From the IMG/VR virus record IMGVR_UViG_2737471824_000003: a DNA stretch of 20,534 nucleotides. One strand, 5' to 3'. The DNA is from a virus. Its lineage: Duplodnaviria; Heunggongvirae; Uroviricota; Caudoviricetes. Positions 6,262-20,534 of the stretch are shown here, piece after piece. Both the position numbers and the translations under genes were made by a program. Under the pieces are notes generated by a model. That model did no database searches. It worked only from the letters and a program-made list of their open reading frames with translations, and was not told where the DNA came from. How positions within the stretch are numbered: the stretch's first letter is position 1; the number at the start of each line of letters is the position of its first letter.

Positions 6262-6441
6262 TCCCCGCTTTATCCAAATTGCATTGCCAGAATGCCGACA
6301 ACAGACTGACATTCAAATCCTGACTACCTCCGATAGGCTGAGCATCCACCTATATAGTTTTAATTTTCATCAATCCATTTAACTATCGTTTAATTGTTGT
6401 CACATAGGATTCTGCCGTTTTTAACAATGCAGGATAATAAG

Positions 6442-6735: not shown

Positions 6736-6745
6736 TTGCATGAGT

Positions 6746-6763
6746 TGCCCATCGATATGGGCA
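6746..6763. terminator. hairpin between convergent bor and Rz stops (candidate bidirectional terminator)
   Basis: tgcccat-cgat-atgggca perfect 7-bp stem located exactly between the bor stop (6733-6735) and the Rz stop (6767-6769). Confidence 0.35.
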
Positions 6764-6766
6764 GCT

Positions 6767-7228
6767 CTATCTGCACTGCTCATTAATATACTTCTGGGTT
6801 CCTTCCAGTTGTTTTTGCATAGTGATCAGCCTCTCTCTGAGGGTGAAATAATCCCGTTCAGCGGTGTCTGCCAGTCGGGGGCTGGTTGCATTATCCACGC
6901 CGGAGGCGGTGGTGGCTTCACGCACTGACTGACAGACTGCTTTGATGTGCAACCGACGACGACCAGCGGCAACATCAGCGCGCAGAGTTTCATTTTCAGC
7001 TTTCGCATTGGCTAATTCTCTCGAGTACTTTGCATCGAGTGCAGCAACATCACGCTGACGCTGCTGCATGTCAGCGATGGTGGCGATCGACTGCTTCAGC
7101 TCACTGACTTTTTTATCACGCTGTTCTTTGTAGGCGATGGCGTTATCACGGTAATGATTGACCGCCCACGACAGGCAGACGATGATGCAGATAACCAAAG
7201 CATAAATAATCGCGGCGACTCTGCTCAC
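6767..7228 (-). CDS. rz: i-spanin Rz (153 aa from GTG 7228; track ORF extends to TTG 7243)
   Basis: Matches lambda Rz (..[34 protein letters not shown]...[63 protein letters not shown]). The GTG start overlaps the endolysin stop (GTGA). Confidence 0.9.
6826..7008 (-). CDS. rz1: o-spanin Rz1 lipoprotein (60 aa), embedded in the +1 frame of Rz
   Basis: [55 protein letters not shown]: lipobox plus proline-rich core as in lambda Rz1; nested inside Rz. Confidence 0.9.
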
Positions 7229-7758
7229 TGCTCTATCCCCCAACAGGCTAATGCGCTTTCCTGGTCACGACGAATAACCTGTCCATAGCAGTTATTTGAA
7301 CGTATGCGGCAATCGCGCCCACCATCTTTTATCCACCAGCGAATCGCCTCGCATGCGCCCTTACGATCACCGGCATTCAGCCGCTTATAAAACGTCGACG
7401 GGAAACACTTACCGGGGCCAATGTTATAGGGACAGAATGACGCTATACCCGCTTTTTGTGGTTCGGTCAGTAGTACTTTAATATTGCGCTCCACCCATGC
7501 CAGCGCCTTATCACGCTCAATGGCGTTGACCTGGTCGCATTTTTCCTTCGACAGTTTCATACCGGGAAAAACGGGTTTTCCATCCACTATCGTGGCACCC
7601 CGACAGATGGTCCAGATGCCGGACCCATCGCGGTATGCCGTTGTGTGGTTACCTTCTTTTTCATCCAGAAACTGGTCGAGAATATCAGGCGCGGGCGCAC
7701 CGACGGCAATCAGTGCCAGAACGGCAGCCGACAGGCCGTATCTGATTTTTGCGTTCAT
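7225..7758 (-). CDS. R: SAR endolysin (phage lysozyme, P21 R-like), 177 aa
   Basis: N-terminal signal-anchor-release segment ([18 protein letters not shown]) followed by the T4-lysozyme-like catalytic triad context (E..D..T: [22 protein letters not shown]). Directly followed by Rz/Rz1. Confidence 0.9.
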
Positions 7759-7821
7759 GGATATTTATCAGGATTTATCGGTTTCTGCCCACGGACAGGT
7801 TTATCTGTTCCGGTCAGTGAC

Positions 7822-8172
7822 TTAAGGTTGTGATTCCGGAGGAGTCTTCAGAGAACCAGTAATTCTTCCCGGTAGCTTTCCTTTGTAGGTTATCCATACA
7901 TTCTGCGCCTCTAAAATTACGGGGCGCTTTTCCGGCGACTGCTCATCCCCTTCACATAACCCGGCAGCAACATCCAGGAAGACCTGTCTGATGCTCATTC
8001 TGGCTGCTGCCTCATAAAACTCCAGCGCGGCACCTTCAACACGGTCCAGCGAGATGTCCAGGTCAAAAATTTCACCGTCAAAGCGTTTTTTGTCCCGCAA
8101 CGCTAAAGTTACCGTAACTTTATTCTCAAAATTGCGGATCCCTTTCACAATCAGTTCATAGTTTTGAGTCAT
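7822..8172 (-). CDS. hypothetical protein between holin and endolysin (possibly DUF1327/YdfR-like), 116 aa
   Basis: Complete ORF with ATG and an upstream GGGGAG. Its position matches ydfR in K-12 Qin (essQ-ydfR-rrrQ). Assignment is by position and vague sequence recollection only. Confidence 0.45.
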   Translation of the reverse strand: MTQNYELIVKGIRNFENKVTVTLALRDKKRFDGEIFDLDISLDRVEGAALEFYEAAARMSIRQVFLDVAAGLCEGDEQSPEKRPVILEAQNVWITYKGKLPGRITGSLKTPPESQP

Positions 8173-8176
8173 TGAA

Positions 8177-8392
8177 TTACTCTCCCCGTGCCGCCTTACG
8201 ACGGTCCTCTCTGATTTTGAAATACAGGTTAGTCAGATATGTCAGCAGCCCAAACAGCAGACTCCCCAGCACGCCTATTGCCGCCCACTGAGACGGGGAA
8301 ACCCTGTCCAGCAACTGCAGGAACCAGTAGCCCGTTCCCACCGCTGACGTGGTGTATGACACACCTGTTGTGATTTTTTCCATCTGGTCCAT
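8177..8392 (-). CDS. S: pinholin (phage 21 S21-like) with dual-start motif, 71/68 aa
   Basis: [71 protein letters not shown] closely resembles P21 S21. Two Met codons three codons apart (8392 and 8383), as in holin/antiholin pairs. The track ORF (to 8497) is over-extended upstream. Confidence 0.85.
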
Positions 8393-8699
8393 ACCCCGTC
8401 TCCCGTTATCCGGAAGCTGACAACAATAAAAAAGCCACCAGTTAACTACTGATGGCTCTGATAACTCATGCAAGCGTCTCAGACGATCCACTGACACTAC
8501 CGGTGAGTTTAACGATACCTTCCATTTGACTGGCTCACTTTTTATGATGATGCCGGTGTATTTATCTCCAGCACCAGACTTTCTATCTCAACGCCATACG
8601 TTGCATTTTTGGTAATATCCGTCAGCGTCAGTGCATTTAGTCCCACTGCCAGACCGTCTTTTATGGCCTGGAATGCCGGGCCAGTACGATGACGTAGTA

Positions 8700-8888
8700 T
8701 CACTCCGGCTCAGTTGCACCACTGACCACCACATCACCTTCTGCTGCAATCGCCTGCATCAGGGTATAAGGGGTTATGGCCACCGGACTACCAAACGGCT
8801 GCCAGCCCTCTTTCAGTTTATGTGTCAGCTTTTCCGCAAGATCTGACGGCGCCGCCGCCCTGACAACATCATAGTGTTTAAATGCCAT
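8700..8888 (-). CDS. DUF1737-like small protein (62 aa)
   Basis: MAFKHYDVVRAA.PSDLAEKL...KEGWQPFGSPV... pattern recalled from DUF1737 proteins that often sit near lambdoid lysis genes. Start taken at ATG 8888. Confidence 0.5.
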   Translation of the reverse strand: MAFKHYDVVRAAAPSDLAEKLTHKLKEGWQPFGSPVAITPYTLMQAIAAEGDVVVSGATEPE

Positions 8889-9148
8889 GGTTCTTTCCAC
8901 CATCTGAAAAATAATTCTTTAAAATACCTGACATGTAATACAGAAAAAACACAAAACCATACCTTAAATAAAAACTTGATTATCAAGCAGATATGCATGG
9001 ATAAACTACAAGACGAGATATAAACCACCCTGCATTTAAATAAACAATAAACAACATCAGAAAAATAATTCTGCTCTATGGTTTACATTCAAAAATATCA
9101 TTTATACTTTTCAGAACATCACCAGCAAGGCATAAACAAGGAAACTAA

Positions 9149-9484
9149 ATGAAGTGGATTGTGATTGATACAGTTATCCAGCCATCATGCGGAATATCTT
9201 TTTCAGTCATATGGAGTAAAGTAAAATTAATAATCTGGTATCAATCGGATGCTTTCTTACCTCCTGAAAGTATATTTACACTGACTCACACAGGTATCAT
9301 GCTCAATAACAAAGTGCTACCTGTAACCATTTACAACGTAGTACCATTCAATAAAACATTCTGGAATTTAATCAAAAACAGCCAGGAATGCCCTACAAAT
9401 ACAGATAACGTATTGAATGAATGCTTTAATAACCGTTGCATTCTGCAAATATGTCCTTATGGACTAAAACAACAAAGTCCATAA
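9149..9484 (+). CDS. hypothetical protein, 111 aa, AT-rich cargo gene with rare-codon bias
   Basis: ATG preceded by AAGGA (caaggaaactaaATG). Six Cys. Five AUA (rare Ile) codons among 111. On the strand opposite to the late operon, inside the AT-rich island between the tRNAs and the lysis genes. No recognisable family. Confidence 0.45.
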
Positions 9485-9518
9485 GGAGTTTACTCACATC
9501 TGACAAAATCAATATAAA

Positions 9519-9540
9519 CAGCCCCTCCGGAGAGGGGCTG
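9519..9540 (-). terminator. Rho-independent terminator (9-bp perfect stem, 4-nt loop, T-rich tail on minus strand)
   Basis: cagcccctc-cgga-gaggggctg. On the minus strand it is followed by TTTATATTGATTTT. Sits between the convergent cargo ORFs. Confidence 0.5.
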
Positions 9541-9931
9541 GAGAGTGGCGCTATGTGCCATTGCATGGTGCCGGGTGCCTCCCGGTGAATTCAGTACCAG
9601 CACCTGAATCCGCGATTATCCCATATACCTACTCGCTGATTGCCCCTCCGCACAGGGGGATTCACCATGCCAGTTTCTTTTAACAAACTCCCCGCAAACC
9701 AGACAACAGTCAACCGCCTGAATTGTGAAGTATTTAAAAATTTCTCCCGCTAACTGATACCCGGCTAACAGTCTGGCGTTTTCTTTTTCAGCAACGGGAA
9801 AGCAACAACCACCACACCCGCCACCAGCACACTGTCAGCCAGCACTGACATTATCCGGCTGCTGCAATGCCATTCACAAAAACAGTAAGCAATCACTTTT
9901 TACCGTAACAGGTGATAATCCAGATATGTAT

Positions 9932-10285
9932 CTACCCCAGATGAGTAATCCGAAGTTCATCCATACCACAGGTCCTGGCTATTCTGTTGTACTCCTGAAC
10001 AAGAGCAAATAATTCTGAATTAGCAACCATGAACTCATCGCAAACCCTCTGTATAGCATCACTATTCAGAATAATAACGTCTCTTCCCGAAAGACGATCA
10101 GGAGCACAGAACAAAACTGTCAAACGGCTGAAGGCCTTTGCTCGTGCTGCATTGACTATATCAATACGCTGCCTAAGGATGAAACACCCCGACGCCTCAT
10201 CAATATTCACTCTACCCACACCATATGAATGATAAATATTTAATGCTGAAAAAACCATTAGACCGTATAACAAACACTCAATCAA
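9932..10285 (-). CDS. hypothetical protein (117 aa from TTG 10285; first ATG at 10258 gives 108 aa); possibly degenerate
   Basis: Only long ORF in this part of the island, with protein-like composition (..VLFCAPDRLSGRDVIILNSDAIQRVCDEFMVANSELFALVQEYNRIAR..). Neither candidate start has a convincing SD. No family recognised. Confidence 0.35.
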   Translation of the reverse strand: MIECLLYGLMVFSALNIYHSYGVGRVNIDEASGCFILRQRIDIVNAARAKAFSRLTVLFCAPDRLSGRDVIILNSDAIQRVCDEFMVANSELFALVQEYNRIARTCGMDELRITHLG

Positions 10286-10311
10286 TACTTAACAGAACTT
10301 TTATTTTTGAC

Positions 10312-10326
10312 AAACATATTATGTTT
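10312..10326. promoter_or_regulatory. 15-bp perfect palindrome AAACATATTATGTTT (candidate operator) in the promoter region of the 9932-10285 ORF
   Basis: Arms aaacata/tatgttt verified by reverse complement. Embedded in a longer imperfect dyad (ttgacaaacatattatgttttcaa) between the tRNA-Arg gene and the ORF. Confidence 0.35.
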
Positions 10327-10395
10327 TCAACAATATCCTGAGCCAGGTATATTCCAGTATAAGGCTCTGCCGGAAGGAATCTGGAAGAATGAATA

Positions 10396-10472
10396 TGGCG
10401 CGCTGTACTGGATTCGAACCAGTGACCGATTGCTTAGAAGGCAATTGCTCTGTCCGGCTGAGCTAACAACGC
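10396..10472 (-). tRNA. tRNA-Arg (anticodon UCU), 77 nt including CCA
   Basis: Reverse complement folds as a cloverleaf: acceptor GCGTTGT/ACAGCGC (one G-U pair), D-stem GCTC/GAGC, anticodon stem ATTGC/GCAAT with loop CTTCTAA, T-arm ACTGG-TTCGAAT-CCAGT, 3' GCCA. Differs from chromosomal argU as recalled, so phage-encoded. Confidence 0.9.
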
Positions 10473-10572
10473 TGAATACCGATAATGGACCGCCATCGGG
10501 GACCCGCCCCCGCACCAACAACCCTGTTATCGTGTCGTCTGCTCTTCCTGATAAGCTAATGGCGGTTTGTGA

Positions 10573-10648
10573 TGGTGGCCCTTGCTGGATTTGAACCAGC
10601 GACCTGGCGATTATGAGTCGCTCGCTCTCACCACTGAGCTAAAGGGCC
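10573..10648 (-). tRNA. tRNA-Ile2 (anticodon CAU, lysidine type; ileX/ileZ-like), 76 nt including CCA
   Basis: Reverse complement GGCCCTTTAGCTCAGTGGTGAGAGCGAGCGACTCATAATCGCCAGGTCGCTGGTTCAAATCCAGCAAGGGCCACCA: perfect 7-bp acceptor stem, anticodon loop CTCATAA, T-loop TTCAAAT. Very close to E. coli ileX as recalled. An initiator or elongator Met identity is not excluded from sequence alone. Confidence 0.85.
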
Positions 10649-10687
10649 GGGAGCAGAATAATAACGGTCCGTAATTAATTCCGCAAT

Positions 10688-10711
10688 AAAAAACCCGCTC
10701 GGCGGCGGGTT
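10688..10711 (-). terminator. candidate tR' terminator downstream of Q
   Basis: On the minus strand: aacccgc-(loop)-gcgggtt followed by TTTTTT, about 50-80 nt downstream of the candidate late promoter and upstream of the tRNAs. Confidence 0.5.
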
Positions 10712-10758
10712 GTAGAAACTCTTCTAACGTCAGGCATAAAAAGCCCATCATTATGACG

Positions 10759-10786
10759 AATTTACCACAGATTCCGGAAAAATCAA
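10759..10786 (-). promoter_or_regulatory. candidate late promoter pR' (qut region)
   Basis: On the minus strand: TTGATT (-35), 16-nt spacer, TG-n-TAAATT (extended -10), immediately 3' of the Q stop as in lambdoid late regions. Confidence 0.4.
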
Positions 10787-10791
10787 CCTTG

Positions 10792-11613
10792 TTACCTAGT
10801 TACCTTTTTTAACTGCCGCTCAGCCCATGCTTCTTCAATATCAAACCGGGTCACCAGCGCATCATAGAATTTCTTAACTGTTTTTTCCCATGACGCGCGT
10901 GTTATCTGGTTTGTCACCTCGCATATAGCATTAAATGCCTCCGTTGATGGTAGTCTTTCATAGCCACGACCACCACAACGCTGGCAGTCTCTGATAACAG
11001 GCATACCACGTTTTACCGACTCTTCACGGTGAATGGCGACACCACGCCCACGGCAATCCTTACAGGCGGTGGAAACCTCACCCTTTCCGCCACACTCCGG
11101 ACAGGCAACTTTTACCACCTCCCTGACTTTTTTCCATTCTTCCCAGTAAGACGGATACACACCTTTCGTACACTTTGCCCATACCGGCGGCTTACCATCC
11201 GGATACTGGACCTTGTTTGTAAAAACTATGCTTTCAATAAATTTTTCCCCATAGCAACAAGGGCACTGCTTTTTACTCGCTGCGCTGCGGGCATAATCCT
11301 CAAAAGCATACGAAGCCATAATGCGCATCACTACCGGTTTTATTTCTGCCGGAAGTTTTCTCAACGCCGCCACACGATCGCACCGACTGAGTGCATAATC
11401 TGCCAGTAATTCTGTTGCCCGCGCCCTGTCATTCATACTGATGCCCATTTTCCCCAGGAACGCAGAAAAACCCATCTCAGCCCGATTCTGTGTCATGCCC
11501 TGCGCGGCCATCACATCAGTGATACTCAGCGCATCTTTTGACGTTGAGGCCGATGCATCGGTCAGGCCAGGGGATTTTGGGGAGTAGTATTTCGGTAAAT
11601 CTTCCAGTTTCAT
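10792..11613 (-). CDS. Q: late-gene antiterminator Q (Phage_antitermQ-type), 273 aa
   Basis: N-terminus MKLEDLPKYYSPKSP... and multiple CxxC zinc motifs (CPCCYG, CPECGGKGE, CKDCRGRG, CQRCGGRG). Positioned immediately upstream of the promoter/terminator/tRNA/lysis block and downstream of rusA. Confidence 0.75.
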   Translation of the reverse strand: MKLEDLPKYYSPKSPGLTDASASTSKDALSITDVMAAQGMTQNRAEMGFSAFLGKMGISMNDRARATELLADYALSRCDRVAALRKLPAEIKPVVMRIMASYAFEDYARSAASKKQCPCCYGEKFIESIVFTNKVQYPDGKPPVWAKCTKGVYPSYWEEWKKVREVVKVACPECGGKGEVSTACKDCRGRGVAIHREESVKRGMPVIRDCQRCGGRGYERLPSTEAFNAICEVTNQITRASWEKTVKKFYDALVTRFDIEEAWAERQLKKVTR

Positions 11614-11627
11614 TTTTTGACCTGCTC

Positions 11628-11990
11628 TTAATGCATTATGGGGTAAATCTTCACCCCCAGACGTCCACCAGATACTGGCTGACCACGAACGATATTGATT
11701 TCATCAAACTGCTCATCGTCCATTAACACTCCCGCATGCGTCAGCGCATCCAGCGGTGCTTTCAGGATATTGTCCAGGTCGCGACGACGCTTATCCGGTG
11801 GCTCTGCAATCACCTTTATCGCCAGCCTTCCGGACAGGTTTAATTTCAGCCGCTGCTGGCGAACAATTAGCACCACATCACGGCGATAACGCTTTCCGGC
11901 CTCCGAGATGAAATACGTATTGCCATGACGTCGCCAGTAGGTATTCACCGTCGGCGGGTAAGGCAAAACAAATTCTATGCGTTCAGTCAT
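11628..11990 (-). CDS. rusA: Holliday junction resolvase RusA (120 aa)
   Basis: Conserved core ..PPDKRRRDLDNILKAPLDALTHAGVLMDDEQ.. (RusA catalytic Asp cluster). Typical nin-region position upstream of Q. Confidence 0.9.
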   Translation of the reverse strand: MTERIEFVLPYPPTVNTYWRRHGNTYFISEAGKRYRRDVVLIVRQQRLKLNLSGRLAIKVIAEPPDKRRRDLDNILKAPLDALTHAGVLMDDEQFDEINIVRGQPVSGGRLGVKIYPIMH

Positions 11991-13049
11991 TCATGCTTTC
12001 CACTTCAGGACACCCGAATTTCTCGCGTGCATTAAAAAACGAATCAGCAACAACAGCTGGCTGCCGTGTTTTTCTTCAAAATCTTTTACCCCGGCGTGCA
12101 GTTCGTTATGACATTTACGGCACAGCGGAATAACAAACAAATCATCAGCCTTTGTTCCCATACCTCCCAGGCCATGACCAATGATGTGATGCGGATCATC
12201 TGCCTGATTACCGCACGTCATGCATTTCTGCGTTTTTACCCAGCGCGTGTATACAGGCATCTCTTCCCGTTGTGGTTTCTGGCGCTGGAGATACTGAGCC
12301 GGAGACTCCGGATCAACGGCGATGCTTACTAACGTCTTTTCCTGGAGTGGGGGCTGTTGCTGGTGGACGTGAAGTGGCAGCGCAATATTTTTTGTGCGCT
12401 GCTTCAGTATGCTGGTGGCAGTCTGTTCTCCCGGTACGATGTCACTCTCACGGTATACGGAGCGGATTTTTTCCACCGGTAATCCCAGTGAACGACACAA
12501 TACAGACTCCGGAAGCGCATCAGCCACCTGATTGCAGACCGCCCACCAGGATAATTCGGCCAGCGATAACTCCCTCTCCTGCGTACCGCTGATTGCGTGA
12601 CGGATGACGTCAATCATCCATGCTGACAAGTTTTGGTGAGCAAGTTGCTCAAGTGATTCTGAGGTCTGGTCACGCAACTGGTTGTCGCAGTGCCAGCACA
12701 ACACCATTGCGCCGGTACCATAACGGTGAATGACGGTTTCACTGTGGTGATAATCACCGTGTGGCCACTGGCAGGATTTAATATGGCGCAACAGCCAGTC
12801 AGACAGTGCACCAGCGCCGCCAGCAGCACGAATCACACGCTCATTGCTGAAAAATGGCAGTAATGATTTATCCTCCGCCAGCGGCTGGCGAACGGCAGGG
12901 ACGACTCCGGATGGCAGGCCGCACATGCTTTTCGGTTCCGGCTCCACCAGCACTCGAGGATTATGAAATATCTGTATGGATTCACGGCCCGGCTTAAGGA
13001 CCACCAGCCCAAGCTCAGGCACCAGAACAGGTCTAAGTAATACCCGCAC
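11991..13049 (-). CDS. DUF968 family protein (YdfU-like), 352 aa, with C-terminal HNH-like zinc motif
   Basis: C-terminus CMTCGNQADDPHHIIGHGLGGMGTKADDLFVIPLCRKCHNELH. Size and position (between the hok region and rusA/Q) match ydfU of Qin. GTG start at 13049 has GGAGG 4 nt upstream and is coupled to the upstream stop; an internal ATG at 12926 is an alternative. Confidence 0.7.
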   Translation of the reverse strand: MRVLLRPVLVPELGLVVLKPGRESIQIFHNPRVLVEPEPKSMCGLPSGVVPAVRQPLAEDKSLLPFFSNERVIRAAGGAGALSDWLLRHIKSCQWPHGDYHHSETVIHRYGTGAMVLCWHCDNQLRDQTSESLEQLAHQNLSAWMIDVIRHAISGTQERELSLAELSWWAVCNQVADALPESVLCRSLGLPVEKIRSVYRESDIVPGEQTATSILKQRTKNIALPLHVHQQQPPLQEKTLVSIAVDPESPAQYLQRQKPQREEMPVYTRWVKTQKCMTCGNQADDPHHIIGHGLGGMGTKADDLFVIPLCRKCHNELHAGVKDFEEKHGSQLLLLIRFLMHARNSGVLKWKA

Positions 13050-13050
13050 G

Positions 13051-13323
13051 TTACCTCCAGATCCGTTGCTGGAAAGTGCGGGACGGACGTGGTGGGCGTT
13101 CGGAATAAGGCAGCCTGACAGAGATTATCCAGTGCCGATAGTCGAGACTGAGAGCTTTCTTAACCTCGAACCCGCGCCTGCGGTAAGAATGAATCAGCCA
13201 TTCGGCCTGTTCTTCAGTACATGGTGGGTGTTGGTACCAGTCGGTTTTAAATGCGTGTGAACGCCGCTCATGCCGGATGGCAAGGTCGGTATCAGAATTG
13301 TGAAATTTGGTTTTGTGCGCCAT
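13051..13323 (-). CDS. hypothetical protein, 90 aa (positional equivalent of rem in Qin)
   Basis: Complete ATG-initiated ORF between hok and the DUF968 gene. No motif recognised. Confidence 0.45.
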   Translation of the reverse strand: MAHKTKFHNSDTDLAIRHERRSHAFKTDWYQHPPCTEEQAEWLIHSYRRRGFEVKKALSLDYRHWIISVRLPYSERPPRPSRTFQQRIWR

Positions 13324-13395
13324 CTGTTTTCTCTGCTGGCGCAGCAGGTGTCAGGTGTTCAGGCTGACGTGCGAATTGTAAACCAGAATGCCAGG

Positions 13396-13422
13396 AAAAA
13401 ACAAAACCCGCCGAAGCGGGTT
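13396..13422 (-). terminator. Rho-independent terminator downstream of hok
   Basis: On the minus strand: aacccgc-ttcg-gcgggtt followed by TTTGTTTTTT. Confidence 0.5.
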
Positions 13423-13490
13423 AAGTGCGGGTGCGTTGAGGATGCCTGACACATCAGAGGTGGCGAGGGATTTCTCCCCCGCCAGGTCTC

Positions 13491-13646
13491 TTACTCCTCA
13501 GGTTCGTAAGCTGTGAAGACAGCGACCTCCGTCTGGCCGGTTCGGATTCGTACCTCGCAGAGGTCTTTCCTCGTTACCAGTGCCGTCACTATGACGGTTA
13601 AACAGATGACGATCAGGGCGATTAACATCGCCTTTTGCTGCTTCAT
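13491..13646 (-). CDS. hokD: Hok/Gef-family type I toxin (HokD/RelF-like), 51 aa
   Basis: Translates to MKQQKAMLIALIVICLTVIVTALVTRKDLCEVRIRTGQTEVAVFTAYEPEE, a canonical Hok (TM helix plus conserved Cys, C-terminal periplasmic tail). Below the ORF-track size cutoff. Confidence 0.9.
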   Translation of the reverse strand: MKQQKAMLIALIVICLTVIVTALVTRKDLCEVRIRTGQTEVAVFTAYEPEE

Positions 13647-13904
13647 AGCCTGCTTCTCCTTGACCTTTCGGTCCGTAAGAGGCTAATCTCTATGTGTCGC
13701 ATAGATATGGCCTCAGATTAATGTTAAGCGTCTTGCAGGACGCGTAATGTTAACTGGGGCTTTTCTCTATCTGCCTTTTGGTGTTCATGCCTGAGACAGA
13801 TAGCCTCAAGCACCCGCAGTAATTCTACTTAACTAAGATTTCCCCGCAAACCGTTTTTGTCCGGCACAGTAAATATCCAACTAAACCAATGGCGTTCGCT
13901 GTAT

Positions 13905-14084
13905 TTACCGCCAGTATTCAATGCACATGACCGCCATGAACACCCCTAAAAAAAGGGCATTTATATATCCAAATATTAATATCAAAACATCAACTTTTTC
14001 TATATACCTTGCTGTGAAGATGATGGGCATACATGATACGAACAACCAGAACGCAACAAACAAAAACTGCAATGCGTTTTTCAT
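13905..14084 (-). CDS. small predicted two-helix membrane protein (59 aa from ATG 14084)
   Basis: ATG preceded by AGGAGG-aata. Product MKNALQFLFVAFWLFVSCMPIIFTARYIEKVDVLILIFGYINALFLGVFMAVMCIEYWR has two hydrophobic segments. Very AT-rich. Immediately upstream of the hok locus. Confidence 0.4.
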   Translation of the reverse strand: MKNALQFLFVAFWLFVSCMPIIFTARYIEKVDVLILIFGYINALFLGVFMAVMCIEYWR

Positions 14085-14313
14085 TATTCCTCCTACAATC
14101 AATGTGCAATTACATTTAAACACACCTCAATTTGGCCGGACATATAAATATCTAAACCAGAAAAAATCACTTACATAGCGTTACAAACTCTTTAGTCTAA
14201 ATATTCATCGTAAAACATTCCCCATACTTATCAGCCCGTTCTGCGCCAGGTAGCTCATTGCCTTATCTGGGAATCTGTAATCAGGTTTCCGGATGCTGGT
14301 GGATTTTCGCGTT

Positions 14314-14571
14314 TTAGTTGTTCATAAAAGTGCACAGCTTTAACCAGTTCTTCTGATGTAACCGGGACTGGCGGGGCAGTGAATAAGGCCTGAATTTCAT
14401 AGTTCGGCCTGTCGTTACAATCCTCTTTTTTCGGTACATATTTCCAGTCACCAGACCACTACTTCCCCTGAAAGTCCGTAACGCCTTTTTTTTCACGTAG
14501 CGATATCGCCATGCCACTGTTTTTGCTTGCCCCGCCGTTTCATGCCCTTCCTGATAATTAACCTCGCTCAT
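14314..14571 (-). CDS. basic small protein (85 aa in the 0 frame) containing an A_AAA_AAG slippery heptamer; a -1 shift would extend it to ~105 aa (stop at 14255-14257)
   Basis: ATG overlaps the stop of the upstream 58-aa gene (ATGA). In-frame heptamer A AAA AAG at 14425-14431 (minus-strand sense). The -1 frame is closed by TAG 11 codons upstream of the site and open for 56 codons downstream, with a more protein-like composition (..TSEELVKAVHFYEQLKRENPPASG..). Confidence 0.45.
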   Translation of the reverse strand: MSEVNYQEGHETAGQAKTVAWRYRYVKKKALRTFRGSSGLVTGNMYRKKRIVTTGRTMKFRPYSLPRQSRLHQKNWLKLCTFMNN

Positions 14572-14744
14572 TCATCGCCCCACTCATCACAATATGCTTC
14601 GACCGGAGTTTTTCCTGCTTCATAATCATCACGCCATGCTTCAGCATCAGCAGCACTGCCACCACGTAACTCTGCATAGTCCATTAACAGTTCATGCCAT
14701 TCTTCAAAACTGACGTTGTATTTAGTTGAACCAAAATCAGCCAT
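14568..14744 (-). CDS. small acidic protein (58 aa)
   Basis: ATG with GAGGAAG upstream. Product MADFGSTKYNVSFEEWHELLMDYAELRGGSAADAEAWRDDYEAGKTPVEAYCDEWGDE. Its stop overlaps the start of the next gene. Below the ORF-track cutoff. Confidence 0.4.
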   Translation of the reverse strand: MADFGSTKYNVSFEEWHELLMDYAELRGGSAADAEAWRDDYEAGKTPVEAYCDEWGDE

Positions 14745-14919
14745 TTTGTTCTTCCTCTTCGTCTTTTATTTCGTGATATGAGTAATTGCAGTAGTTAAAG
14801 AAAATATCTTTTGCTTCGTCATGTATTTCATCAGGCGTCGCATCATCATCCACTTCGAATTCATCCTCGAAATCTCCACCGGCTATTCCCGTTTCAATAA
14901 TTATTTTAAACTTTCGCAT
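14737..14919 (-). CDS. small acidic protein (60 aa)
   Basis: ATG-initiated; strongly acidic (DFEDEFEVDDDATPDEIHDEAKD...DEEEEQNG). A GNRA-type hairpin (14927-14942) lies just upstream. Confidence 0.45.
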   Translation of the reverse strand: MRKFKIIIETGIAGGDFEDEFEVDDDATPDEIHDEAKDIFFNYCNYSYHEIKDEEEEQNG

Positions 14920-15012
14920 TTAACTACCGCCCTTTCGGGCGGCCTCCTGATGTTCTGAGGGTGCAGAAATCCCTCCGGTTAAGGATTAAATTTTTAACAG
15001 AGCTAAATTTAA

Positions 15013-15426
15013 TTATTCAGTTCTGGATTTTGTCGCCCTGCGTATCCGCGCTTTCGCGTTACGCTCAATCTGAATTAGCTTTTCTATATTTTTTCGCCTT
15101 TCCCGCTCCTCCTGACGCAAGAGCCTTACATCATCTGCCAGTCTGGTTTCTCTTTTCGCCACAGAGAGCATCCAGTCAAATGGCTCCACAACTGCACCGC
15201 AGATTTTACAGCGGACCTGACGCTCTTTTTCGTCAACCCGGACAGAGGCGTGATGACAATATGGTCTTTCCGATGGCTCATAAAGAAAATTAACCTGATT
15301 ACGAGGGTCATCCTCTTTTACCGGAAATAAAACGATATTGCTTAACTCATCCTCTGGTTTTATTTCCATGCTCCTCTCCTTTGATGCGAATGCCAGCGGT
15401 AATTGAAGCCTGATAGCTAATTTCAC
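15013..15426 (-). CDS. hypothetical protein with zinc-ribbon-like CHH...CKIC motif (137 aa from GTG; 118 aa from ATG 15369)
   Basis: GTG 15426 is preceded by AGGAGG (7-nt spacer) inside a repeated GGTAATTTTCAGGAGG element. Charged/coiled C-terminus. Confidence 0.5.
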   Translation of the reverse strand: MKLAIRLQLPLAFASKERSMEIKPEDELSNIVLFPVKEDDPRNQVNFLYEPSERPYCHHASVRVDEKERQVRCKICGAVVEPFDWMLSVAKRETRLADDVRLLRQEERERRKNIEKLIQIERNAKARIRRATKSRTE

Positions 15427-15849
15427 TCACAGTACCGCCTCCTGAAAATTACCCTGATAGAAAGCCAGTACACGCTGCATAGCTTCACTCTTCCGGCACT
15501 CGCGACAGATTATGTTTAGGCGACTGTCGTAGCGACGTATTTCTCCGTCAGGTAACGACCAGATAAGGTCCGGATCAACCACAGCAGGTTTCTTCACCTT
15601 TGCCCTCGAGAGTTTTTTGCGGGCGTTTTGCCAGTCCTTACGCGCCTGTTCAGAGGGGAATAACCCGTAGCCGGAGTTGTATACATCGCCGCTGGCAACC
15701 AGCTCTCTTGCGAGAACGCTCATCAGATATCTTGTCGCACCTGTCTTGACTTCCAGTTGCCGTAACGTCTCACGCCCACTCTGGCGTACGAGTTCAACAA
15801 CCTGCCCTTTAATTTTTTCTCGCTCTTCTTGTGTAAAAACTTTTGCCAC
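15427..15849 (-). CDS. hypothetical protein, 140 aa (possible DNA-binding accessory protein of the replication module)
   Basis: GTG start preceded by the same GGTAATTTTCAGGAGG element. No Walker motif, so not a DnaC-type loader. Confidence 0.5.
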   Translation of the reverse strand: MAKVFTQEEREKIKGQVVELVRQSGRETLRQLEVKTGATRYLMSVLARELVASGDVYNSGYGLFPSEQARKDWQNARKKLSRAKVKKPAVVDPDLIWSLPDGEIRRYDSRLNIICRECRKSEAMQRVLAFYQGNFQEAVL

Positions 15850-15889
15850 AAGCCCTCCTGAAAATTACCTCATGACCAGAAATCAACAC

Positions 15890-16966
15890 TTACCCCCTGA
15901 AGCCCGGTGGAATTTCGGTATCCGGTTCAGAAATATGATTCACACAACGCTGGTTGTTCGTGCCGCTTACCGGGAGCAGCCAGGGGTTTTCAAAATTCCG
16001 GTCCGGTCCAAAAAACGTCGTCGCTCGCTGAACAAATTCCGTTCCCGTTTTCCCGGTAGCCGCAAGGTATCTTGCGTAACGCCTCACGCCATCCAGCATG
16101 GCCTCTGGTGGCACCCCCTCGCGTAATCTGGCTTTCCAGGCACTGAAAGCGGATTTCTTCGGGTTTGCCCCGGCACGCAACGGGTATTCCCGCCAGACCT
16201 GTTCGAACACATCAGGATAATCCACTCGTCCCATAGGCTGCCCGGTGTTTTCCGGGACTACCCGATCGGCTTCCCGCTGAATGGCGGAATCGGCTTCAGG
16301 CTGCTGAAGTTGGTGTGATTGCTCCTGCCTTGCGGTCATCACCTGCTGCACAGCGCCCGAATCGGCTTTCAGCGCATACGCTGAATCGGCTTCCGGTGTC
16401 GTGCCTGCGGGCTGGCCAGGAGTGACGGTCTGAACATCCCCTGCCTGGTTCGTGGCGTTTTTTACGCCATGGACCATAGTGTTTTGATCTTCTTGATCTG
16501 TATCTTTATCTGTATCTTTATCTGTCGTGACTCGTCGTGACATGTGCGTGACATTTCGTGACTCGCCGTGACAATCTCCATTTTGTTCCCGCTTTCTTTC
16601 CCTCTCTCGCTGCGCCCTCTTGCGCTCTGCCGGAGATTTTGCGGTTTGCGAAATATTGCCGTTGTCCTCTTTCAGCACCTGGCGTTTTTCCCATCCAGTG
16701 ATTAAATCACCATCAAGTATCCGCCCCTGCATCGTCTGCAAAATTGAATCAATTACCTCTTCTGTCACGTCGAGCGCACTTGCCAAATCTTCTGTCGTGA
16801 CATCAATGTGACCTCGCGTGACATTTCGTGACGCGCTCACCAGGAGGTGGATATACACTGCCATCACTGTTGCAATTGACTGCCCTGACACCCTGGCAAT
16901 TGTTCGCCACTTAGGGTCATTTGGCATGTCATGCCATAATCTGAGCCAGGCGTTAGCCATACTCAC
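15890..16966 (-). CDS. replication initiation protein (lambda O / YdaU-like replisome organiser), 358 aa, with the origin iterons inside the gene
   Basis: Position immediately downstream of the cro/cII-like genes. Helical-phase CGTGAC iterons plus an AT-rich tract lie inside the coding sequence, as in lambda O/ori. Conserved C-terminal block (FEQVWREYP..KKSAFSAWKARL). Start may be ATG 16960 rather than GTG 16966. Confidence 0.65.
   Translation of the reverse strand: MSMANAWLRLWHDMPNDPKWRTIARVSGQSIATVMAVYIHLLVSASRNVTRGHIDVTTEDLASALDVTEEVIDSILQTMQGRILDGDLITGWEKRQVLKEDNGNISQTAKSPAERKRAQRERERKREQNGDCHGESRNVTHMSRRVTTDKDTDKDTDQEDQNTMVHGVKNATNQAGDVQTVTPGQPAGTTPEADSAYALKADSGAVQQVMTARQEQSHQLQQPEADSAIQREADRVVPENTGQPMGRVDYPDVFEQVWREYPLRAGANPKKSAFSAWKARLREGVPPEAMLDGVRRYARYLAATGKTGTEFVQRATTFFGPDRNFENPWLLPVSGTNNQRCVNHISEPDTEIPPGFRG
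16525..16572. repeat. iteron cluster 1: five (T/G/C)CGTGAC repeats at 10-11 bp phasing, adjacent to an AT-rich tandem repeat (16486-16524)
   Basis: CGTGAC at 16526, 16536, 16547, 16557 and 16567. Flanked at lower coordinates by gatcttcttgatctgtatctttatctgtatctttatctg (GATC sites, tandem tctgtatcttta). Confidence 0.6.
16795..16832. repeat. iteron cluster 2: four (C/T)GTGAC repeats at ~10 bp phasing within the initiator N-terminal coding region
   Basis: tcgtgac 16795, tgtgac 16807, gcgtgac 16816, tcgtgac 16826; an inverted gtcacg copy at 16764. Confidence 0.5.
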
Positions 16967-17031
16967 CTCTTCTGATACCGAATCTTTTTACTCACGAGTT
17001 GCCGGAAGTGATTCGATATGGCTATTATCAC

Positions 17032-17457
17032 TCAATGCACTGCCACAGCATTTCCTGCCGGGCCACCACGGTTCATCTGATTGAAACCGGCGATTGCCAC
17101 TGCGACAAAATCATCAGCGTCTCTCACCAGTCGCTCCCGCGTCTCCACCAGCTCCCGAAAATAAGCTGAACTGTGGCTGCGCATTCTGGCCACCAGCAAA
17201 GGTGGCATTGCCTTTTCGATCGCTGGTAACAACGCCTGAATTTTTTCAACTGCATCAGGGGTATCTTTCTCTACCCAGCGGAAAATTTTCTGGGTATTGC
17301 GAGCCAGGGCTTCCGGATGGCTGTCGTCATACAGTTCTGGGAACGTCATACCCAGTTCAAAATAAGCCTGGGTTATTTCAGCTGCCGGAACTTTTTCACC
17401 GTCCGGATGCGCCCAGGCATTCATCGCCATGCGGATGTGTTCATGCTTGATTTTCAT
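17032..17457 (-). CDS. ydaT: YdaT-like protein (CII functional analogue of Rac/CP-933P-type immunity regions), 141 aa
   Basis: N-terminus MKIKHEHI.. and position directly after the cro-like gene match YdaT as recalled. Its start overlaps the 3' end of the ydaS-like ORF. Confidence 0.65.
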   Translation of the reverse strand: MKIKHEHIRMAMNAWAHPDGEKVPAAEITQAYFELGMTFPELYDDSHPEALARNTQKIFRWVEKDTPDAVEKIQALLPAIEKAMPPLLVARMRSHSSAYFRELVETRERLVRDADDFVAVAIAGFNQMNRGGPAGNAVAVH

Positions 17458-17722
17458 GAATCAAGCTCCTAGAAAGTGGTTGTGTTAACGTTTTGGTATC
17501 TTCCAGCTCGGGCCAAATATTCATCCAATCAAAAGGCCTTAGTTGCTGACGTGTAACTTCACCATTACTGGCTCGCTCAATAAGGACACATAACGATGCC
17601 CCTAACACTTGACCTTTACTCAATGCCTTTCTTAGATAACCGATGCTGGTACCACACTCGCATGCAAACATACGCTGTTCATCTGACGAAAGAGAATTGA
17701 GAAATATTCTTAATTCTTCCAT
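17441..17722 (-). CDS. ydaS: Cro-like HTH regulator (YdaS/DUF1019-like), 93 aa
   Basis: HTH region ..CECGTSIGYLRKALSKGQ.. and the ..GEVTRQQLRPFDW.. tail match the YdaS pattern. Divergent from the repressor gene across an operator-rich intergenic region. Confidence 0.7.
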   Translation of the reverse strand: MEELRIFLNSLSSDEQRMFACECGTSIGYLRKALSKGQVLGASLCVLIERASNGEVTRQQLRPFDWMNIWPELEDTKTLTQPLSRSLIHENQA

Positions 17723-17751
17723 AGCTACTCCTTAGTAAACACAGCAAAGAA

Positions 17752-17787
17752 TACCCACAGGTAAACAAAAGTCAATACCCACAGGTT
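17752..17787. promoter_or_regulatory. OR-like operator region: two TACCCACAGGT(A/T) dyads plus a ggtaaacaa/ttgtttacc inverted repeat between the cro-like and repressor genes
   Basis: TACC-N4-GGTA half-site symmetry at 17752-17763 and 17776-17787. The same dyad family recurs downstream of the repressor gene. Confidence 0.55.
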
Positions 17788-17822
17788 GTTTACCTTGCGG
17801 TAATCGCATCTATTATTTACCT

Positions 17823-18242
17823 ATGGACAAATATGAATTTAGACGACAGCAACTCATCAAAATTCGTGATGAGAAATGCGATGGTAAAGCGGTTAACGTG
17901 GCCAGAAAGATCGGGCGCGAGCCTTCTTATGTATCAAGAATGTTGTACCCAGAGGGGAAAAAGGGAAAAAAACGGATCGCTGATGATATGGTGGAGATTA
18001 TCGAAGAGTCCTTTGGGTTACCCCGGGGATGGATGGATGGTATCGTTTCATCATCAACGAACACAGCCTCCAGTTATGAAACAAGGGTTCTAACGCCACG
18101 ACAACGTATTTTTTTAGATCTCTTAGACGAACTGCCAGAAAGTGAAGCGGATAAATTATTAAAAACTCTTGAAGAGAAAAAACAGTATTACAATATGATC
18201 TACGAAGAAATCCGTAAAAAGAAAGCACAAAACGCATCATAG
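17823..18242 (+). CDS. prophage repressor (CI-like, HTH_XRE-type), 139 aa
   Basis: HTH ..KAVNVARKIGREPSYVSRMLY.. near the N-terminus. Divergently transcribed from the cro-like gene and flanked on both sides by related palindromic operators. Confidence 0.7.
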   Translation: MDKYEFRRQQLIKIRDEKCDGKAVNVARKIGREPSYVSRMLYPEGKKGKKRIADDMVEIIEESFGLPRGWMDGIVSSSTNTASSYETRVLTPRQRIFLDLLDELPESEADKLLKTLEEKKQYYNMIYEEIRKKKAQNAS

Positions 18243-18281
18243 CTCACCAAACAACTAGTCACCAGTTAAGACACCGCGAAA

Positions 18282-18321
18282 ATTTACCCATGGGTATTTA
18301 CTTTTTAAATACCTATGGGTA
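18282..18321 (+). promoter_or_regulatory. OL/pL-like promoter-operator for the rightward dicB operon
   Basis: Perfect palindrome TACCCATGGGTA (18285-18296) and TACCTATGGGTA (18310-18321) bracket a candidate promoter (-35 TTTACC, -10 TTAAAT/TAAATA). Confidence 0.5.
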
Positions 18322-18507
18322 TCCTTCTTTTCATGCCAACCCACCCCGCCCCACAGAATGCAGGGCAATACTTCGAGTTACCAGGCAGTGGTCAGGGGTT
18401 AAGTAGCCAGCCCGAGGCGTAAGAACATGACGGCAGGGTTCAACTTTAATAACTATGCAGCAGGTTTTTGTTCCGCTACCCCGGCGTTAAGGGGAAATGA
18501 GGTCAGC

Positions 18508-18663
18508 ATGGATACTATCGATCTTGGCAACAACGAATCTCTGGTGTACGGCGTGTTTCCAAACCAGGACGGCACCTTCACCGCAATGACGTATACAAAA
18601 AGCAAAACGTTTAAAACCGAAAATGGTGCCCGTCGCTGGCTGGAAAGAAACTCAGGTGAGTGA
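18508..18663 (+). CDS. ydfA: DUF1391 small protein (YdfA/YdaF-like), 51 aa
   Basis: MDTIDLGNNESLVYGVFPNQDGTFTAMTYTKSKTFKTENGARRWLERNSGE, with GAGGT 6 nt upstream. First gene of the dicB-type operon. The track ORF starts upstream at 18427. Confidence 0.7.
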   Translation: MDTIDLGNNESLVYGVFPNQDGTFTAMTYTKSKTFKTENGARRWLERNSGE

Positions 18664-18664
18664 T

Positions 18665-18793
18665 ATGGATTTTGACACAATCATGGAAAAGGCTTACGAA
18701 GAATACTTCGAAGGCCTTGCCGAAGGCGAAGAAGCTCACAGCTTCAACGAATTTAAACAGGCGCTTTCCAGTTCGGCAAAATCTAACGGCTGA
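18665..18793 (+). CDS. ydfB: YdfB-like small protein, 42 aa
   Basis: MDFDTIMEKAYEEYFEGLAEGEEAHSFNEFKQALSSSAKSNG; start 2 nt after the ydfA-like stop (coupled). Below the track cutoff. Confidence 0.55.
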   Translation: MDFDTIMEKAYEEYFEGLAEGEEAHSFNEFKQALSSSAKSNG

Positions 18794-18822
18794 TAAGCGA
18801 AACAGCACCGCGAGGAATCAGT

Positions 18823-19041
18823 ATGCAGAAACGAGAACCCGTCATCATCGCGCCAGACTATACCGATGATGAACTTTATGAGTGGATGCACCAGAAAATT
18901 AATGCAGCGCAGGATCTGAAATGGGCCAATGAAGCCAGGGCTAAGCAGGCTGAAAATCTGTCCGCTCTGGAGCAGGATATCACCAATCTGGAAAAAGCAG
19001 CGGCATTAAGCATTGCCAGAATGATTACATACCCGCGTTAA
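18823..19041 (+). CDS. ydfC: YdfC-like protein, 72 aa
   Basis: ATG with GAGGAA upstream. Its position and size match ydfC of Qin. Confidence 0.55.
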   Translation: MQKREPVIIAPDYTDDELYEWMHQKINAAQDLKWANEARAKQAENLSALEQDITNLEKAAALSIARMITYPR

Positions 19042-19382
19042 TAGCTAACCAACGAAGCTAAGGTTGGTAATTAAGGAGTTCTCCACGGGTGAGGTGGAGT
19101 GCGTGCGCCGGACACGGGTGAGCATCCGGCACTGACAGTTTACTGAAAGGATATTTCCCTGAAAAGTCAGACCATAACGCGAAAGCGCACGGCGAGGTAG
19201 CTGGTTCATAGATAGCCTGTCGTTAAATTTTCGTCGACCGTGCGCTTCCGGTTGTGGCACTCCGCGAAATGGCGCGGCGGTAAGTATGGCGGGGTTATTC
19301 CTTCCCCCGTTGAGGACACCGGGTTGTCAGGTTGACCATACGCTTAAGTGACAACCCCGCTGCAACGCCCTCTGTTATCAAT

Positions 19383-19435
19383 TTTCTGGTGACGTTTGGC
19401 GGTATCAGTTTTACTCCGTGACTGCTCTGCCGCCC
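19383..19435 (+). ncRNA. dicF: DicF small RNA (antisense regulator of ftsZ and other targets), 53 nt
   Basis: Sequence TTTCTGGTGACGTTTGGCGGTATCAGTTTTACTCCGTGACTGCTCTGCCGCCC followed by a T-tract. Matches K-12 DicF as recalled; located between ydfC and dicB. Confidence 0.8.
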
Positions 19436-19609
19436 TTTTTAAAGTGAATTTTGTGATGCGGTGAATGCGGCTGAGCGCACGCGGAACAGTTAAAACCAAA
19501 AACAGTGTTATGGGTGGATTCTCTGTATCCGGCGTTAATTGTTAACTGGTTAACGTCACCTGGAGGCACCAGGCACCGCATCACAAAATTCATTGTTGAG
19601 GACGCGATA

Positions 19610-19798
19610 ATGGAAACGTTATTACCAAACGTTAATACGTCTGAAGGTTGTTTTGAAATTGGTGTCACTATCAGTAACCCTGTATTTACTGAAGATGCCA
19701 TTAACAAGAGAAAACACGAACGGGAGCTATTAAATAAAATATGCATTCTTTCAATGTTGGCCCGTTTACGTCCGATACAAAAAGGATGCTGGCAATGA
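19610..19798 (+). CDS. dicB: cell-division inhibitor DicB (62 aa)
   Basis: METLLPNVNTSEGCFEIGVTISNPVFTEDAINKRK.ERELLNKICI.SMLARLR...KGC.Q matches DicB, with GAGGA upstream. The track ORF (19505) is over-extended. Confidence 0.85.
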   Translation: METLLPNVNTSEGCFEIGVTISNPVFTEDAINKRKHERELLNKICILSMLARLRPIQKGCWQ

Positions 19799-19986
19799 AT
19801 ACAGCATTTGCACTTGTTCTGACAGTTTTTCTTGTTTCCGGAGAGCCAGTTGATATTGCAGTCAGTGTTCACAGGACAATGCAGGAGTGTGTGACTGCAG
19901 CAACCGAACAGAAAATTCCCGGTAACTGTTACCCGGTCGATAAAGTTATTCACCAGGATAATAACGAAATCCCGGCAGGTCTTTAA
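19795..19986 (+). CDS. ydfD: YdfD lysis-associated small membrane protein (63 aa)
   Basis: MNTAFALVLTVFLVSGEPVDIAVSVHRTMQEC.TAATEQKIPGNCYPVDKVIHQDN.EIPAGL. The start overlaps the dicB stop (ATGA). Confidence 0.8.
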   Translation: MNTAFALVLTVFLVSGEPVDIAVSVHRTMQECVTAATEQKIPGNCYPVDKVIHQDNNEIPAGL

Positions 19987-20078
19987 AACAGTTCCGTAAT
20001 AAACATCCGATTTCATTCTTATATGCCAGCAATGGCAGGGATTTGTTCACCCTTAAATCTGTAATGAGGTAAAACAAA

Positions 20079-20534
20079 ATGAGTAAAGTCTTTATTTGCG
20101 CCGCCATTCTGGACGAACAGGCAATACAGGAAGAAGGTGCCGTCGCTGTAGCTACTGCCATTGAAGCCGGTGATGAACGTCGCGCCCGCGCAAAATTTCA
20201 CTGGCAATTCCTGGAACATTATCCGGCTGCTCAGGACTGCGCTTATAAATTTCTTGTTTGCGAGGATAAACCCGGTATACCCCGCCCTGCCCTCGATTCC
20301 TGGGATGCTGAATATATGCAGGAAAACCGCTGGGATGAGGAGTCTGCTTCTTTTGTCCCGGTTGAGACTGAATCCGATCCGATGAACGTCACTTTTGACA
20401 AGCTGGCCCCTGAAGTACAGAACGCTGTCATGGTTAAGTTCGACACATGTGAAAACATCACCGTTGATATGGTTATTAGCGCACAGGAATTGTTGCAGGA
20501 AGACATGGCAACATTCAACGGACATATCGTTGAA
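20079..20534 (+). CDS. ydfE: YdfE-like protein, 5' part only (runs off the window end)
   Basis: ATG 20079 with an upstream TGAGGT. Reading frame MSKVFICAAILDEQAIQEEGAVAVATAIEAGDERRARAKFHWQFLEHYPAAQDCAYKF... is open to the last base; follows ydfD as in Qin. Confidence 0.65.
   Translation, partial: MSKVFICAAILDEQAIQEEGAVAVATAIEAGDERRARAKFHWQFLEHYPAAQDCAYKFLVCEDKPGIPRPALDSWDAEYMQENRWDEESASFVPVETESDPMNVTFDKLAPEVQNAVMVKFDTCENITVDMVISAQELLQEDMATFNGHIVE

Follow-up and report, generated by a model that had tools for sequence, protein, structure and literature searches.

The hokD (relF) gene of K-12, which lies in the Qin prophage, stands behind relBE and has no leader of its own. A gene for the same toxin is present in the 20,534-nt stretch of viral DNA analyzed here (the window), on the minus strand, and the question was whether it is arranged as in K-12 or belongs to a hok/sok locus with its own mok and sok. 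Very probably it is part of an intact type I toxin-antitoxin cassette of the hok/sok family, a hokD allele with mok and sok of its own, in the nin region of a lambdoid prophage. The complete hok/sok-type locus spans about 13396-13850 and is not a K-12-style hokD fused to relBE. A previous inspection of the letters and predicted ORFs (the sequence-only reading) had placed the locus at 13491-13900; this span was too short on the 3' side, where fbi and the terminator also belong to the locus. Coordinates of all elements are collected in Table 1.

Table 1. Elements of the hok/sok locus and other RNA matches, numbered along the window.
Feature	Position	Strand	Basis
Putative hok/mok promoter	13822-13850	-	Aligns with the R1-type promoter region
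Predicted full-length mok-hok mRNA, about 420 nt	13396-13815	-	5' end at tac, 3' end at the terminator U-run
hok mRNA leader, Rfam RF01794	13644-13815	-	Covariance-model match
tac (GGGUGCUUGAGG)	13804-13815	-	mRNA 5' end
ucb / anti-SD box AAGCCCC	13756-13762	-	Predicted folds
mok: SD GAGG 13711-13714, ATG 13700-13702, stop TGA 13643-13645	13643-13714	-	Sequence
Hypervariable patch	13696-13708	-	Per-column variability
mok-start stem-loop UCUAUG-CGACA-CAUAGA, putative Sok-target hairpin	13689-13705	-	Predicted folds
dcb box GCCUC	13679-13683	-	Predicted folds
hok SD AGGAGA	13655-13660	-	Motif position
hok CDS, 51 aa	13491-13646	-	Pfam, PHROG, HokD identity
hok SD + CDS unit	13491-13660	-	Sequence
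fbi (CCUCAACGCACCC)	13429-13441	-	Complementary to tac, one bulge
Intrinsic hok mRNA terminator AACCCGC-TTCG-GCGGGTT + T-run	13396-13422	-	Terminator search
Putative Sok promoter	13660-13689	+	Alignment to sokW and R1-type loci
Putative Sok RNA, about 70-75 nt	13696-13769	+	Predicted fold; both ends predicted
Other Rfam matches in the window	1378-1576, 9510-9699, 10399-10648, 19384-19435	-, -, -, +	

The toxin gene and its K-12 counterpart

An ORF scan of the window identified an ATG-started ORF of 51 codons, hok, with the product MKQQKAMLIALIVICLTVIVTALVTRKDLCEVRIRTGQTEVAVFTAYEPEE. Toxins of the Hok/Gef family are about 50 aa long and combine an N-terminal transmembrane helix with a conserved periplasmic tail that contains Cys. 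The window protein belongs to these small membrane toxins: it matched all 42 profile positions of Pfam HOK_GEF (PF01848) with 82.9 bits (cut-off, 22 bits; E=1.2e-23) and PHROG 251, 'MokW-like host killing' (E=2.8e-33), and it is identical to WP_000813254.1, which RefSeq names HokD in a K-12-type strain as well as in loci nearly identical to this one. On the strength of the Pfam and PHROG matches, a chance ORF was rejected. The sequence-only reading had proposed a HokD/RelF-like Hok of 51 aa at this position, and the HOK_GEF match and the identity to K-12 HokD confirm it. As also stated there, the gene is missing from an ORF list with a 60-aa cutoff, because it is only 51 codons long.

Codon 47 of hok (13506-13508, minus strand) specifies Tyr47 and reads UAC followed by G (CUUACGAA). 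The hokD mRNA of K-12 undergoes low-level (6%) A-to-I editing, and editing supplies a Cys at a conserved C-terminal position (HokB position 46) in HokC, HokD and HokE (PMC12214031). In our own alignment HokB position 46 corresponds to Tyr47 of the window protein. As the coding sequences are identical, the editing site of K-12 hokD is also present in the window.

In the K-12-type genome, hokD is immediately preceded by relB and relE. Pairwise alignment with the window showed that similarity starts exactly at the hok SD (AGGAGAAGCAGGCTATG, window 13660) and extends to window 13397, so that the breakpoint of the K-12 rearrangement is precise, with relE-side sequence abutting the hok SD. From this SD through fbi and the terminator the two DNAs are nearly identical, they encode the same Hok protein, and their downstream neighborhoods are similar (a DUF968 protein and an antiterminator). 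K-12 lacks the promoter, tac, ucb, mok, the Sok target and the Sok -10, with relBE in their place, whereas the window has all of them. The terminator is retained in K-12, and its fbi is an orphan whose tac partner has been lost. The statement in the sequence-only reading that K-12 hokD is co-transcribed with relBE and lacks sok was correct.

We considered whether the window locus might itself be of the relF type, that is, a hok gene with no sok or mok of its own and expressed as the tail of an upstream operon, like relBE-hokD in K-12. Identity of the toxin to K-12 HokD would suit such an operon, as would the fact that hok points in the same direction as the prophage genes ahead of it. However, the window carries a family-typical leader of about 155 nt that is missing from K-12, this leader matches its Rfam model from end to end, and no relBE is present upstream of hok in the window. 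Together with the start of K-12 similarity at 13660, these observations led us to reject the arrangement at the sequence level, and we give it almost no credence. Alignment and folding of the leader, which had been suggested as a way to decide the matter, revealed tac, fbi and a putative sok promoter and favored the complete hok/sok arrangement; a lack of conserved sok and mok elements had been named as the mark of a relF-type operon, and these elements were found.

Elements of the hok mRNA and the predicted antisense gene

A generic promoter scan reported no sigma-70 sites in 13300-14000 at its thresholds. Both promoters were instead placed by alignment to the R1 and hokW promoters; the scan missed them because their hexamers are weak, the -35 of the hok/mok promoter matching at only three of six positions. 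This putative promoter consists of a -35 TTTGCG (13845-13850), a 17-nt spacer and a -10 TAGAAT (13822-13827), located 6 nt before the presumed start at G13815. Among 78 related loci, TAGAAT was present in 70 and TTTGCG in 40. Homology to hok mRNA of R1, together with the first position of the Rfam model, set the 5' end of the mRNA, and the ends of all RNAs described here are inferred.

The leader matched RF01794 on the hok strand over model positions 1-157 of 157, with 106.7 bits (gathering score, 59) and E=1e-23, so that the window has the structured hok 5' leader of the family as described by its covariance model. RF01794 is named 'sok antitoxin (CssrC)', and its consensus opens with tac, closes with the hok AUG and is sense to hok. 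The model marks the leader of the hok mRNA and not the antisense Sok RNA, and the strand of a match would mis-annotate sok.

The predicted fold of the ~420-nt mRNA had an energy of -175.1 kcal/mol, compared with -125.4 +/- 6.0 kcal/mol for shuffled sequences (z=-8.36). In this full-length fold, tac was paired with 13429-13441 through 12 pairs and one bulge, and the mok SD was paired with 13756-13759 in ucb. The tac/fbi duplex (-21.5 kcal/mol) was equalled by 28 of 2000 shuffled 3'UTRs and is thus of only moderate significance alone. Since tac is invariant across 68 close relatives, covariation was sought in more distant loci, and there the pairing survives two-sided changes, as GGGCGC/GCGCCC in a Pantoea locus and as GGCGC/GCGCC in the R1-type locus. 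Long-range closure of the 5' and 3' ends by tac and fbi was accordingly found in silico. The fbi element is kept in 72 of the 78 relatives and the terminator hairpin in 62; in the window this terminator is the single terminator-like site in 13300-14000.

RefSeq annotates a 59-aa 'hypothetical protein' (WP_001112736.1) opposite hok, at 13270-13449 on the plus strand, overlapping the hok 3'UTR, fbi, the terminator and the next gene. This is probably a spurious call over structured RNA.

The mRNA was also truncated in silico at four 3' ends (13442, 13445, 13450 and 13455). When it ended at 13450 or 13455, the predicted folds contained a tac/ucb stem, with tac paired to 13756-13762, and a mok-SD/dcb stem, with the mok SD paired to 13679-13682. 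When it ended at 13442 or 13445, tac was placed in a different, local 5' hairpin. The R1-type locus, folded likewise as a positive control, gave its published end pairing. In plasmid R1 the transition from full-length to truncated mRNA is a switch to tac/ucb and mok-SD/dcb pairing (PMC9841398), and the modeled 13450 and 13455 folds match this conformational switch. The ucb box is the most conserved part of the leader, with 0.011 differences per column, and the outer stem GAGGC/GCCUC formed by the mok SD and dcb was kept in 97.7% of cells across variants.

The putative Sok promoter lies inside the leader, convergent with hok, and is composed of a -35 TTGACC (13660-13665), an 18-nt spacer and a -10 TAATCT (13684-13689), with a start at about G13696. 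Its -10 aligns with TATCCT of the R1-type locus and with TAACCT, the hexamer whose mutation Takada et al. used to silence sokW (primer YO-421; PMC8621323). The aligned hexamer in the 78 relatives was TAACCT in 60, TAATCT in 11 and, by reading of the hexamers, CAATCT in 7. The predicted Sok RNA begins with a 13-nt single-stranded 5' tail that is complementary to the mok start region, continues with a long hairpin and closes with UUUUCUCU (the U-run); its fold was predicted at -33.8 kcal/mol (z=-5.1). The same layout of tail, hairpin and U-run was predicted for hokW, for Rac, for a variant with an unrelated hairpin sequence and for the R1-type locus. An antisense sok-like RNA had been expected in the leader, and the expectation holds to the extent of a candidate promoter and a predicted RNA design.

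Variation of mok and of the putative Sok-target hairpin

In mok, 8 nt separate the GAGG from the ATG, and the frame comprises 19 codons (MRHIEISLLRTERSRRSRL) whose UGA overlaps the hok AUG (AUGA). The sequence-only reading had expected the leader to contain the mok overlap. A mok frame is indeed present, but it is not the long overlapping frame of R1 type, as it stops after 19 codons on the hok start. On paper mok has its own SD and a translation that reaches the hok initiation region, in a form unlike that of R1 and unlike MokW.

The spacing of mok was compared in 80 IMG/VR loci that encode an identical HokD. The mok ATG lies 57 nt before the hok ATG, in frame, giving a 70-aa 'MokW', in 66 of these loci. 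The arrangement of the window, with a 56-nt spacing and a 19-codon mok ending in AUGA, was found in 11 and is a minority allele; the remaining three had no tac, and two of them were of the K-12 relE type. Rac-type phage (Rac 442/2) has a 58-nt spacing with an R1-like +1 overlap. Compared with the majority allele, the window lacks 2 nt immediately behind the mok ATG and has 1 nt more ahead of the hok SD, through a deletion and an insertion respectively. A separate lineage (L024 type) differs from the majority allele by two opposite 1-nt indels and retains the 57-nt spacing.

A search with the 83-nt mok/sok core returned a full-length match of 100% identity at the top rank and 777 complete-genome records in the band of at least 99% identity, with an ST131 strain among the matches listed in that band. 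The mok allele of the window is not a private mutation, and the exact core at the top rank together with the 777 records argues against a decaying one-off copy. Mutagenesis of R1 showed that mok translation has to reach the hok start and need not go further (PMC9841398), and for this reason a 19-codon mok should, by analogy, still couple to hok. The minority mok and the loop shortened to 5 nt could alter either the coupling or recognition by Sok.

The hypervariable patch overlaps the 5' arm and loop of the hairpin at the mok start and doubles as the template of the Sok 5' tail. Across 68 distinct related sequences its variability was 0.33 per column, compared with 0.06-0.09 in neighboring leader segments and with 0.006 in the hok CDS, a figure that is partly built in because the sample was chosen for identical Hok. 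A hairpin was kept in all 18 sequence variants of the region; in the window it stands in a different register from the majority and has a loop of 5 nt, compared with 7-9 nt in most other variants. At least nine distinct loop sequences occur beside identical HokD. RNAalifold, run on all 18 variants, recovered no structure in the mok-start region except the outer SD/dcb stem. By pair counting, 90% of cells were paired in the inner hairpin versus 27-62% in slid controls; no two-sided pair changes were seen in this hairpin across the 18 variants, and the column shuffle was uninformative. The inner hairpin is supported by persistence, not by covariation.

Among five genomes with at least two comparable leaders, a small sample, co-resident copies differed in the patch in four. 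Within that sample the differences fit insulation between paralogous Sok RNAs. We tentatively suggest, while judging it less likely than the contrary, that rapid diversification of the patch, roughly 4-5 times as variable as the leader segments beside it, keeps co-resident hokD and hokW cassettes independent, that the identity and frame of Mok would be free to drift, and that the 19-codon AUGA mok would be a working termination-reinitiation switch. On that suggestion the frame could drift, and the 56-, 57- and 58-nt forms persist, because only the transit of ribosomes to the hok start matters. Within an incomplete coverage of the literature, no specific account was found of mok frame variants or of cross-talk between the Sok RNAs of hok paralogs, and the most recent survey of Hok diversity expressly set the analysis of Mok and Sok aside.

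Related systems, distribution and proposed function

The only close relative with experiments is hokW-sokW of Sakai prophage 5 (Sp5) and Stx phages, for which HokW toxicity, sokW antitoxin activity, both RNAs and membrane localization have been shown (Takada et al. 2021, PMC8621323). Production of HokW is RecA-dependent after prophage induction, and the experiments extend to toxin release on induction (PMC8621323). The two cassettes, both on lambdoid prophages, are about 91% identical in nucleotide sequence over 443 nt, from the promoter to fbi. They share tac, ucb, the predicted Sok hairpin, the mok SD, dcb, the hok SD and fbi, and have the Sok -10 at the same place. The first 44 residues of HokW are identical to those of the window Hok, whereas the C-terminus of HokW differs (...VFVDYESEK). 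Further differences are that MokW is a 70-aa in-frame extension (57 nt) and the window mok a 19-codon ORF (56 nt), that the loop of the Sok target differs in sequence, and that downstream of fbi hokW-sokW has sequence unrelated to that of the window, which holds its terminator there. The position in the phage genome is also different, the window locus being situated between the replication genes and DUF968/RusA/Q.

The plasmid-borne hok/sok (parB) of R1, for which post-segregational killing has been demonstrated, is organized like the window locus, its promoter and tac being followed by ucb, the mok SD and mok, the Sok promoter, hok, fbi and the terminator. Pairing of the mRNA ends is predicted alike in both, and R1 Sok has the same design of 5' tail and hairpin, with a shorter hairpin. 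The leader and 3'UTR align in blocks only, the Hok sequences are clearly divergent (HokW is 44% identical to R1 Hok; PMC8621323), and the R1 mok is a 70-codon +1-frame overlap (58 nt) in contrast to the 19 codons (56 nt) of the window. The chromosomal hokC/mokC/sokC (gef) and other chromosomal hok loci are about 82% identical to the window over the SD-hok region and conserve the tac/fbi pairing, but they encode another toxin subfamily and occupy a fixed chromosomal position. According to the literature as cited in PMC12214031, the K-12 copies of these loci have been inactivated by IS elements.

At least 80% of a 521-nt cassette query was found in 3815 of 5426 complete E. coli genomes, the median being 2 places per genome and the maximum 10, and P1-like plasmids and lambdoid phages, Stx phages among them, carry the cassette as well. 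Phage records label it mokW/hokW, host killer protein or 'RelF'. Positions 5168-20534 of the window share 99.8% identity with a prophage located next to ompW in strain PD23, the best-matching genome; the window is a mosaic lambdoid prophage, with the left 5 kb of different origin. The hok gene is co-oriented with the operon of the early-right (nin) region in which it lies, and all neighboring genes from the cro-like regulator to Q are on the hok strand.

Several other features of the surroundings were recorded. In strain WP2-S18-ESBL-08 an IS2 (locus L001, 5205-6433) is located about 650 bp upstream of the hok promoter of a cassette identical to this one at 100%, which recalls the IS insertions beside K-12 hok loci. 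Just upstream of the hok promoter of the window, in a patch of 35% GC, a 59-codon ORF (13905-14084, minus strand) with a strong AGGAGG Shine-Dalgarno sequence encodes a hydrophobic product (MKNALQFLFVAFWLFVSCMPIIF...). It had no Pfam or PHROG match and is unannotated in the near-identical RefSeq prophage; the product may be a moron-like small membrane protein. Other Rfam matches in the window were IS009 (225 bits), STnc100 (132 bits), two tRNAs downstream of the Q antiterminator, and DicF near dicB-type genes.

The cassette would be expected to work as follows. Transcription from its weak promoter would yield a ~420-nt mRNA, closed in full length by tac/fbi, with the mok SD held by the upstream ucb. 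Removal of the 3' end would allow tac to pair with ucb, and the mok SD would move to dcb; this fold switch was seen in silico, as were the coupling geometry and the Sok design, whereas the processing of the mRNA is assumed from R1 and hokW-sokW. From the convergent promoter in the leader would come a Sok RNA of ~70 nt, with a free 5' tail complementary to the mok start hairpin. By analogy with the same two systems, Sok would bind the processed mRNA at this hairpin and block mok translation, leading to cleavage of the duplex by RNase III. Translation of Hok would require ribosomes started at mok; in the window these would read the 19 mok codons through the hok SD and stop at the UGA that overlaps the hok AUG.

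If the window resembles R1 and hokW-sokW further, hok would be silent while Sok is present. Once Sok synthesis stopped, the unstable Sok would disappear and the stable hok mRNA would be translated, so that Hok would depolarize the inner membrane and kill the cell. We infer prophage induction as the trigger; loss of the prophage could be another. Early-right transcription would run head-on into the Sok promoter, offering a possible route to loss of Sok. Loss of sokW has been reported for Sp5 (PMC8621323); depletion by early-operon read-through is proposed here for the window only and is not carried over to Sp5. Post-segregational killing is not established for chromosomal or prophage copies.

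Two alternatives concern what the cassette does, not how it is built. With the right anatomy it might still be functionally dead or attenuated, a silent relic from which no Hok is made, the indels having moved mok off its usual frame and shrunk the loop. Such decay would agree with the distribution of mok forms, 66 of 80 identical-HokD loci keeping the 57-nt in-frame mok and 11 the 56-nt form, and with a loop of 5 nt where most other variants have 7-9 nt. It would also agree with a report that native chromosomal hokA, hokB and hokC cannot bring about post-segregational killing (Pedersen & Gerdes, cited after a preprint) and with the description, in PMC12214031, of K-12 hok copies other than hokB as inactivated. 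However, the mok stop overlaps the hok AUG in the classic coupling arrangement (AUGA), the toxin CDS is unchanged, and the mok SD and start, tac, ucb, dcb, fbi, the terminator and the aligned hexamers of both promoters are all present. The exact allele was retrieved at 100% identity at the top rank, with 777 complete-genome records at 99% or above and an ST131 strain among those listed, and it exists in several slightly diverged versions, unlike a recent knockout. We consider a dead cassette improbable.

The same mechanism could alternatively serve defense, with no role in maintenance or lysis: shut-off of host transcription by superinfecting lytic phages would deplete Sok, resulting in abortive infection or exclusion. 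The content of the window favors neither role. A preprint found no enrichment of hok near defense systems, and the sole experiment on a close relative showed a positive effect on the phage's own release (PMC8621323). A defensive function is unlikely in our view, though less so than a dead cassette.

The intact cassette that we favor belongs to a class of systems that has been described before, and for practical purposes the locus itself is known too. Its identification is mostly a matter of annotation: the gene is labeled hokD in RefSeq, but sok and mok carry no annotation in the three records that were inspected. Anyone familiar with K-12 alone would wrongly assume an antitoxin-less hokD driven by relBE. 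The window displays the undisturbed hokD locus and shows that the K-12 rearrangement severed it precisely at the hok SD. Less ordinary are the 19-codon minority mok and the hypervariable loop of the Sok target. If real, the frame polymorphism and the hypervariable loop would bear on how many near-identical RNA antitoxin systems coexist in one cell without cross-talk.
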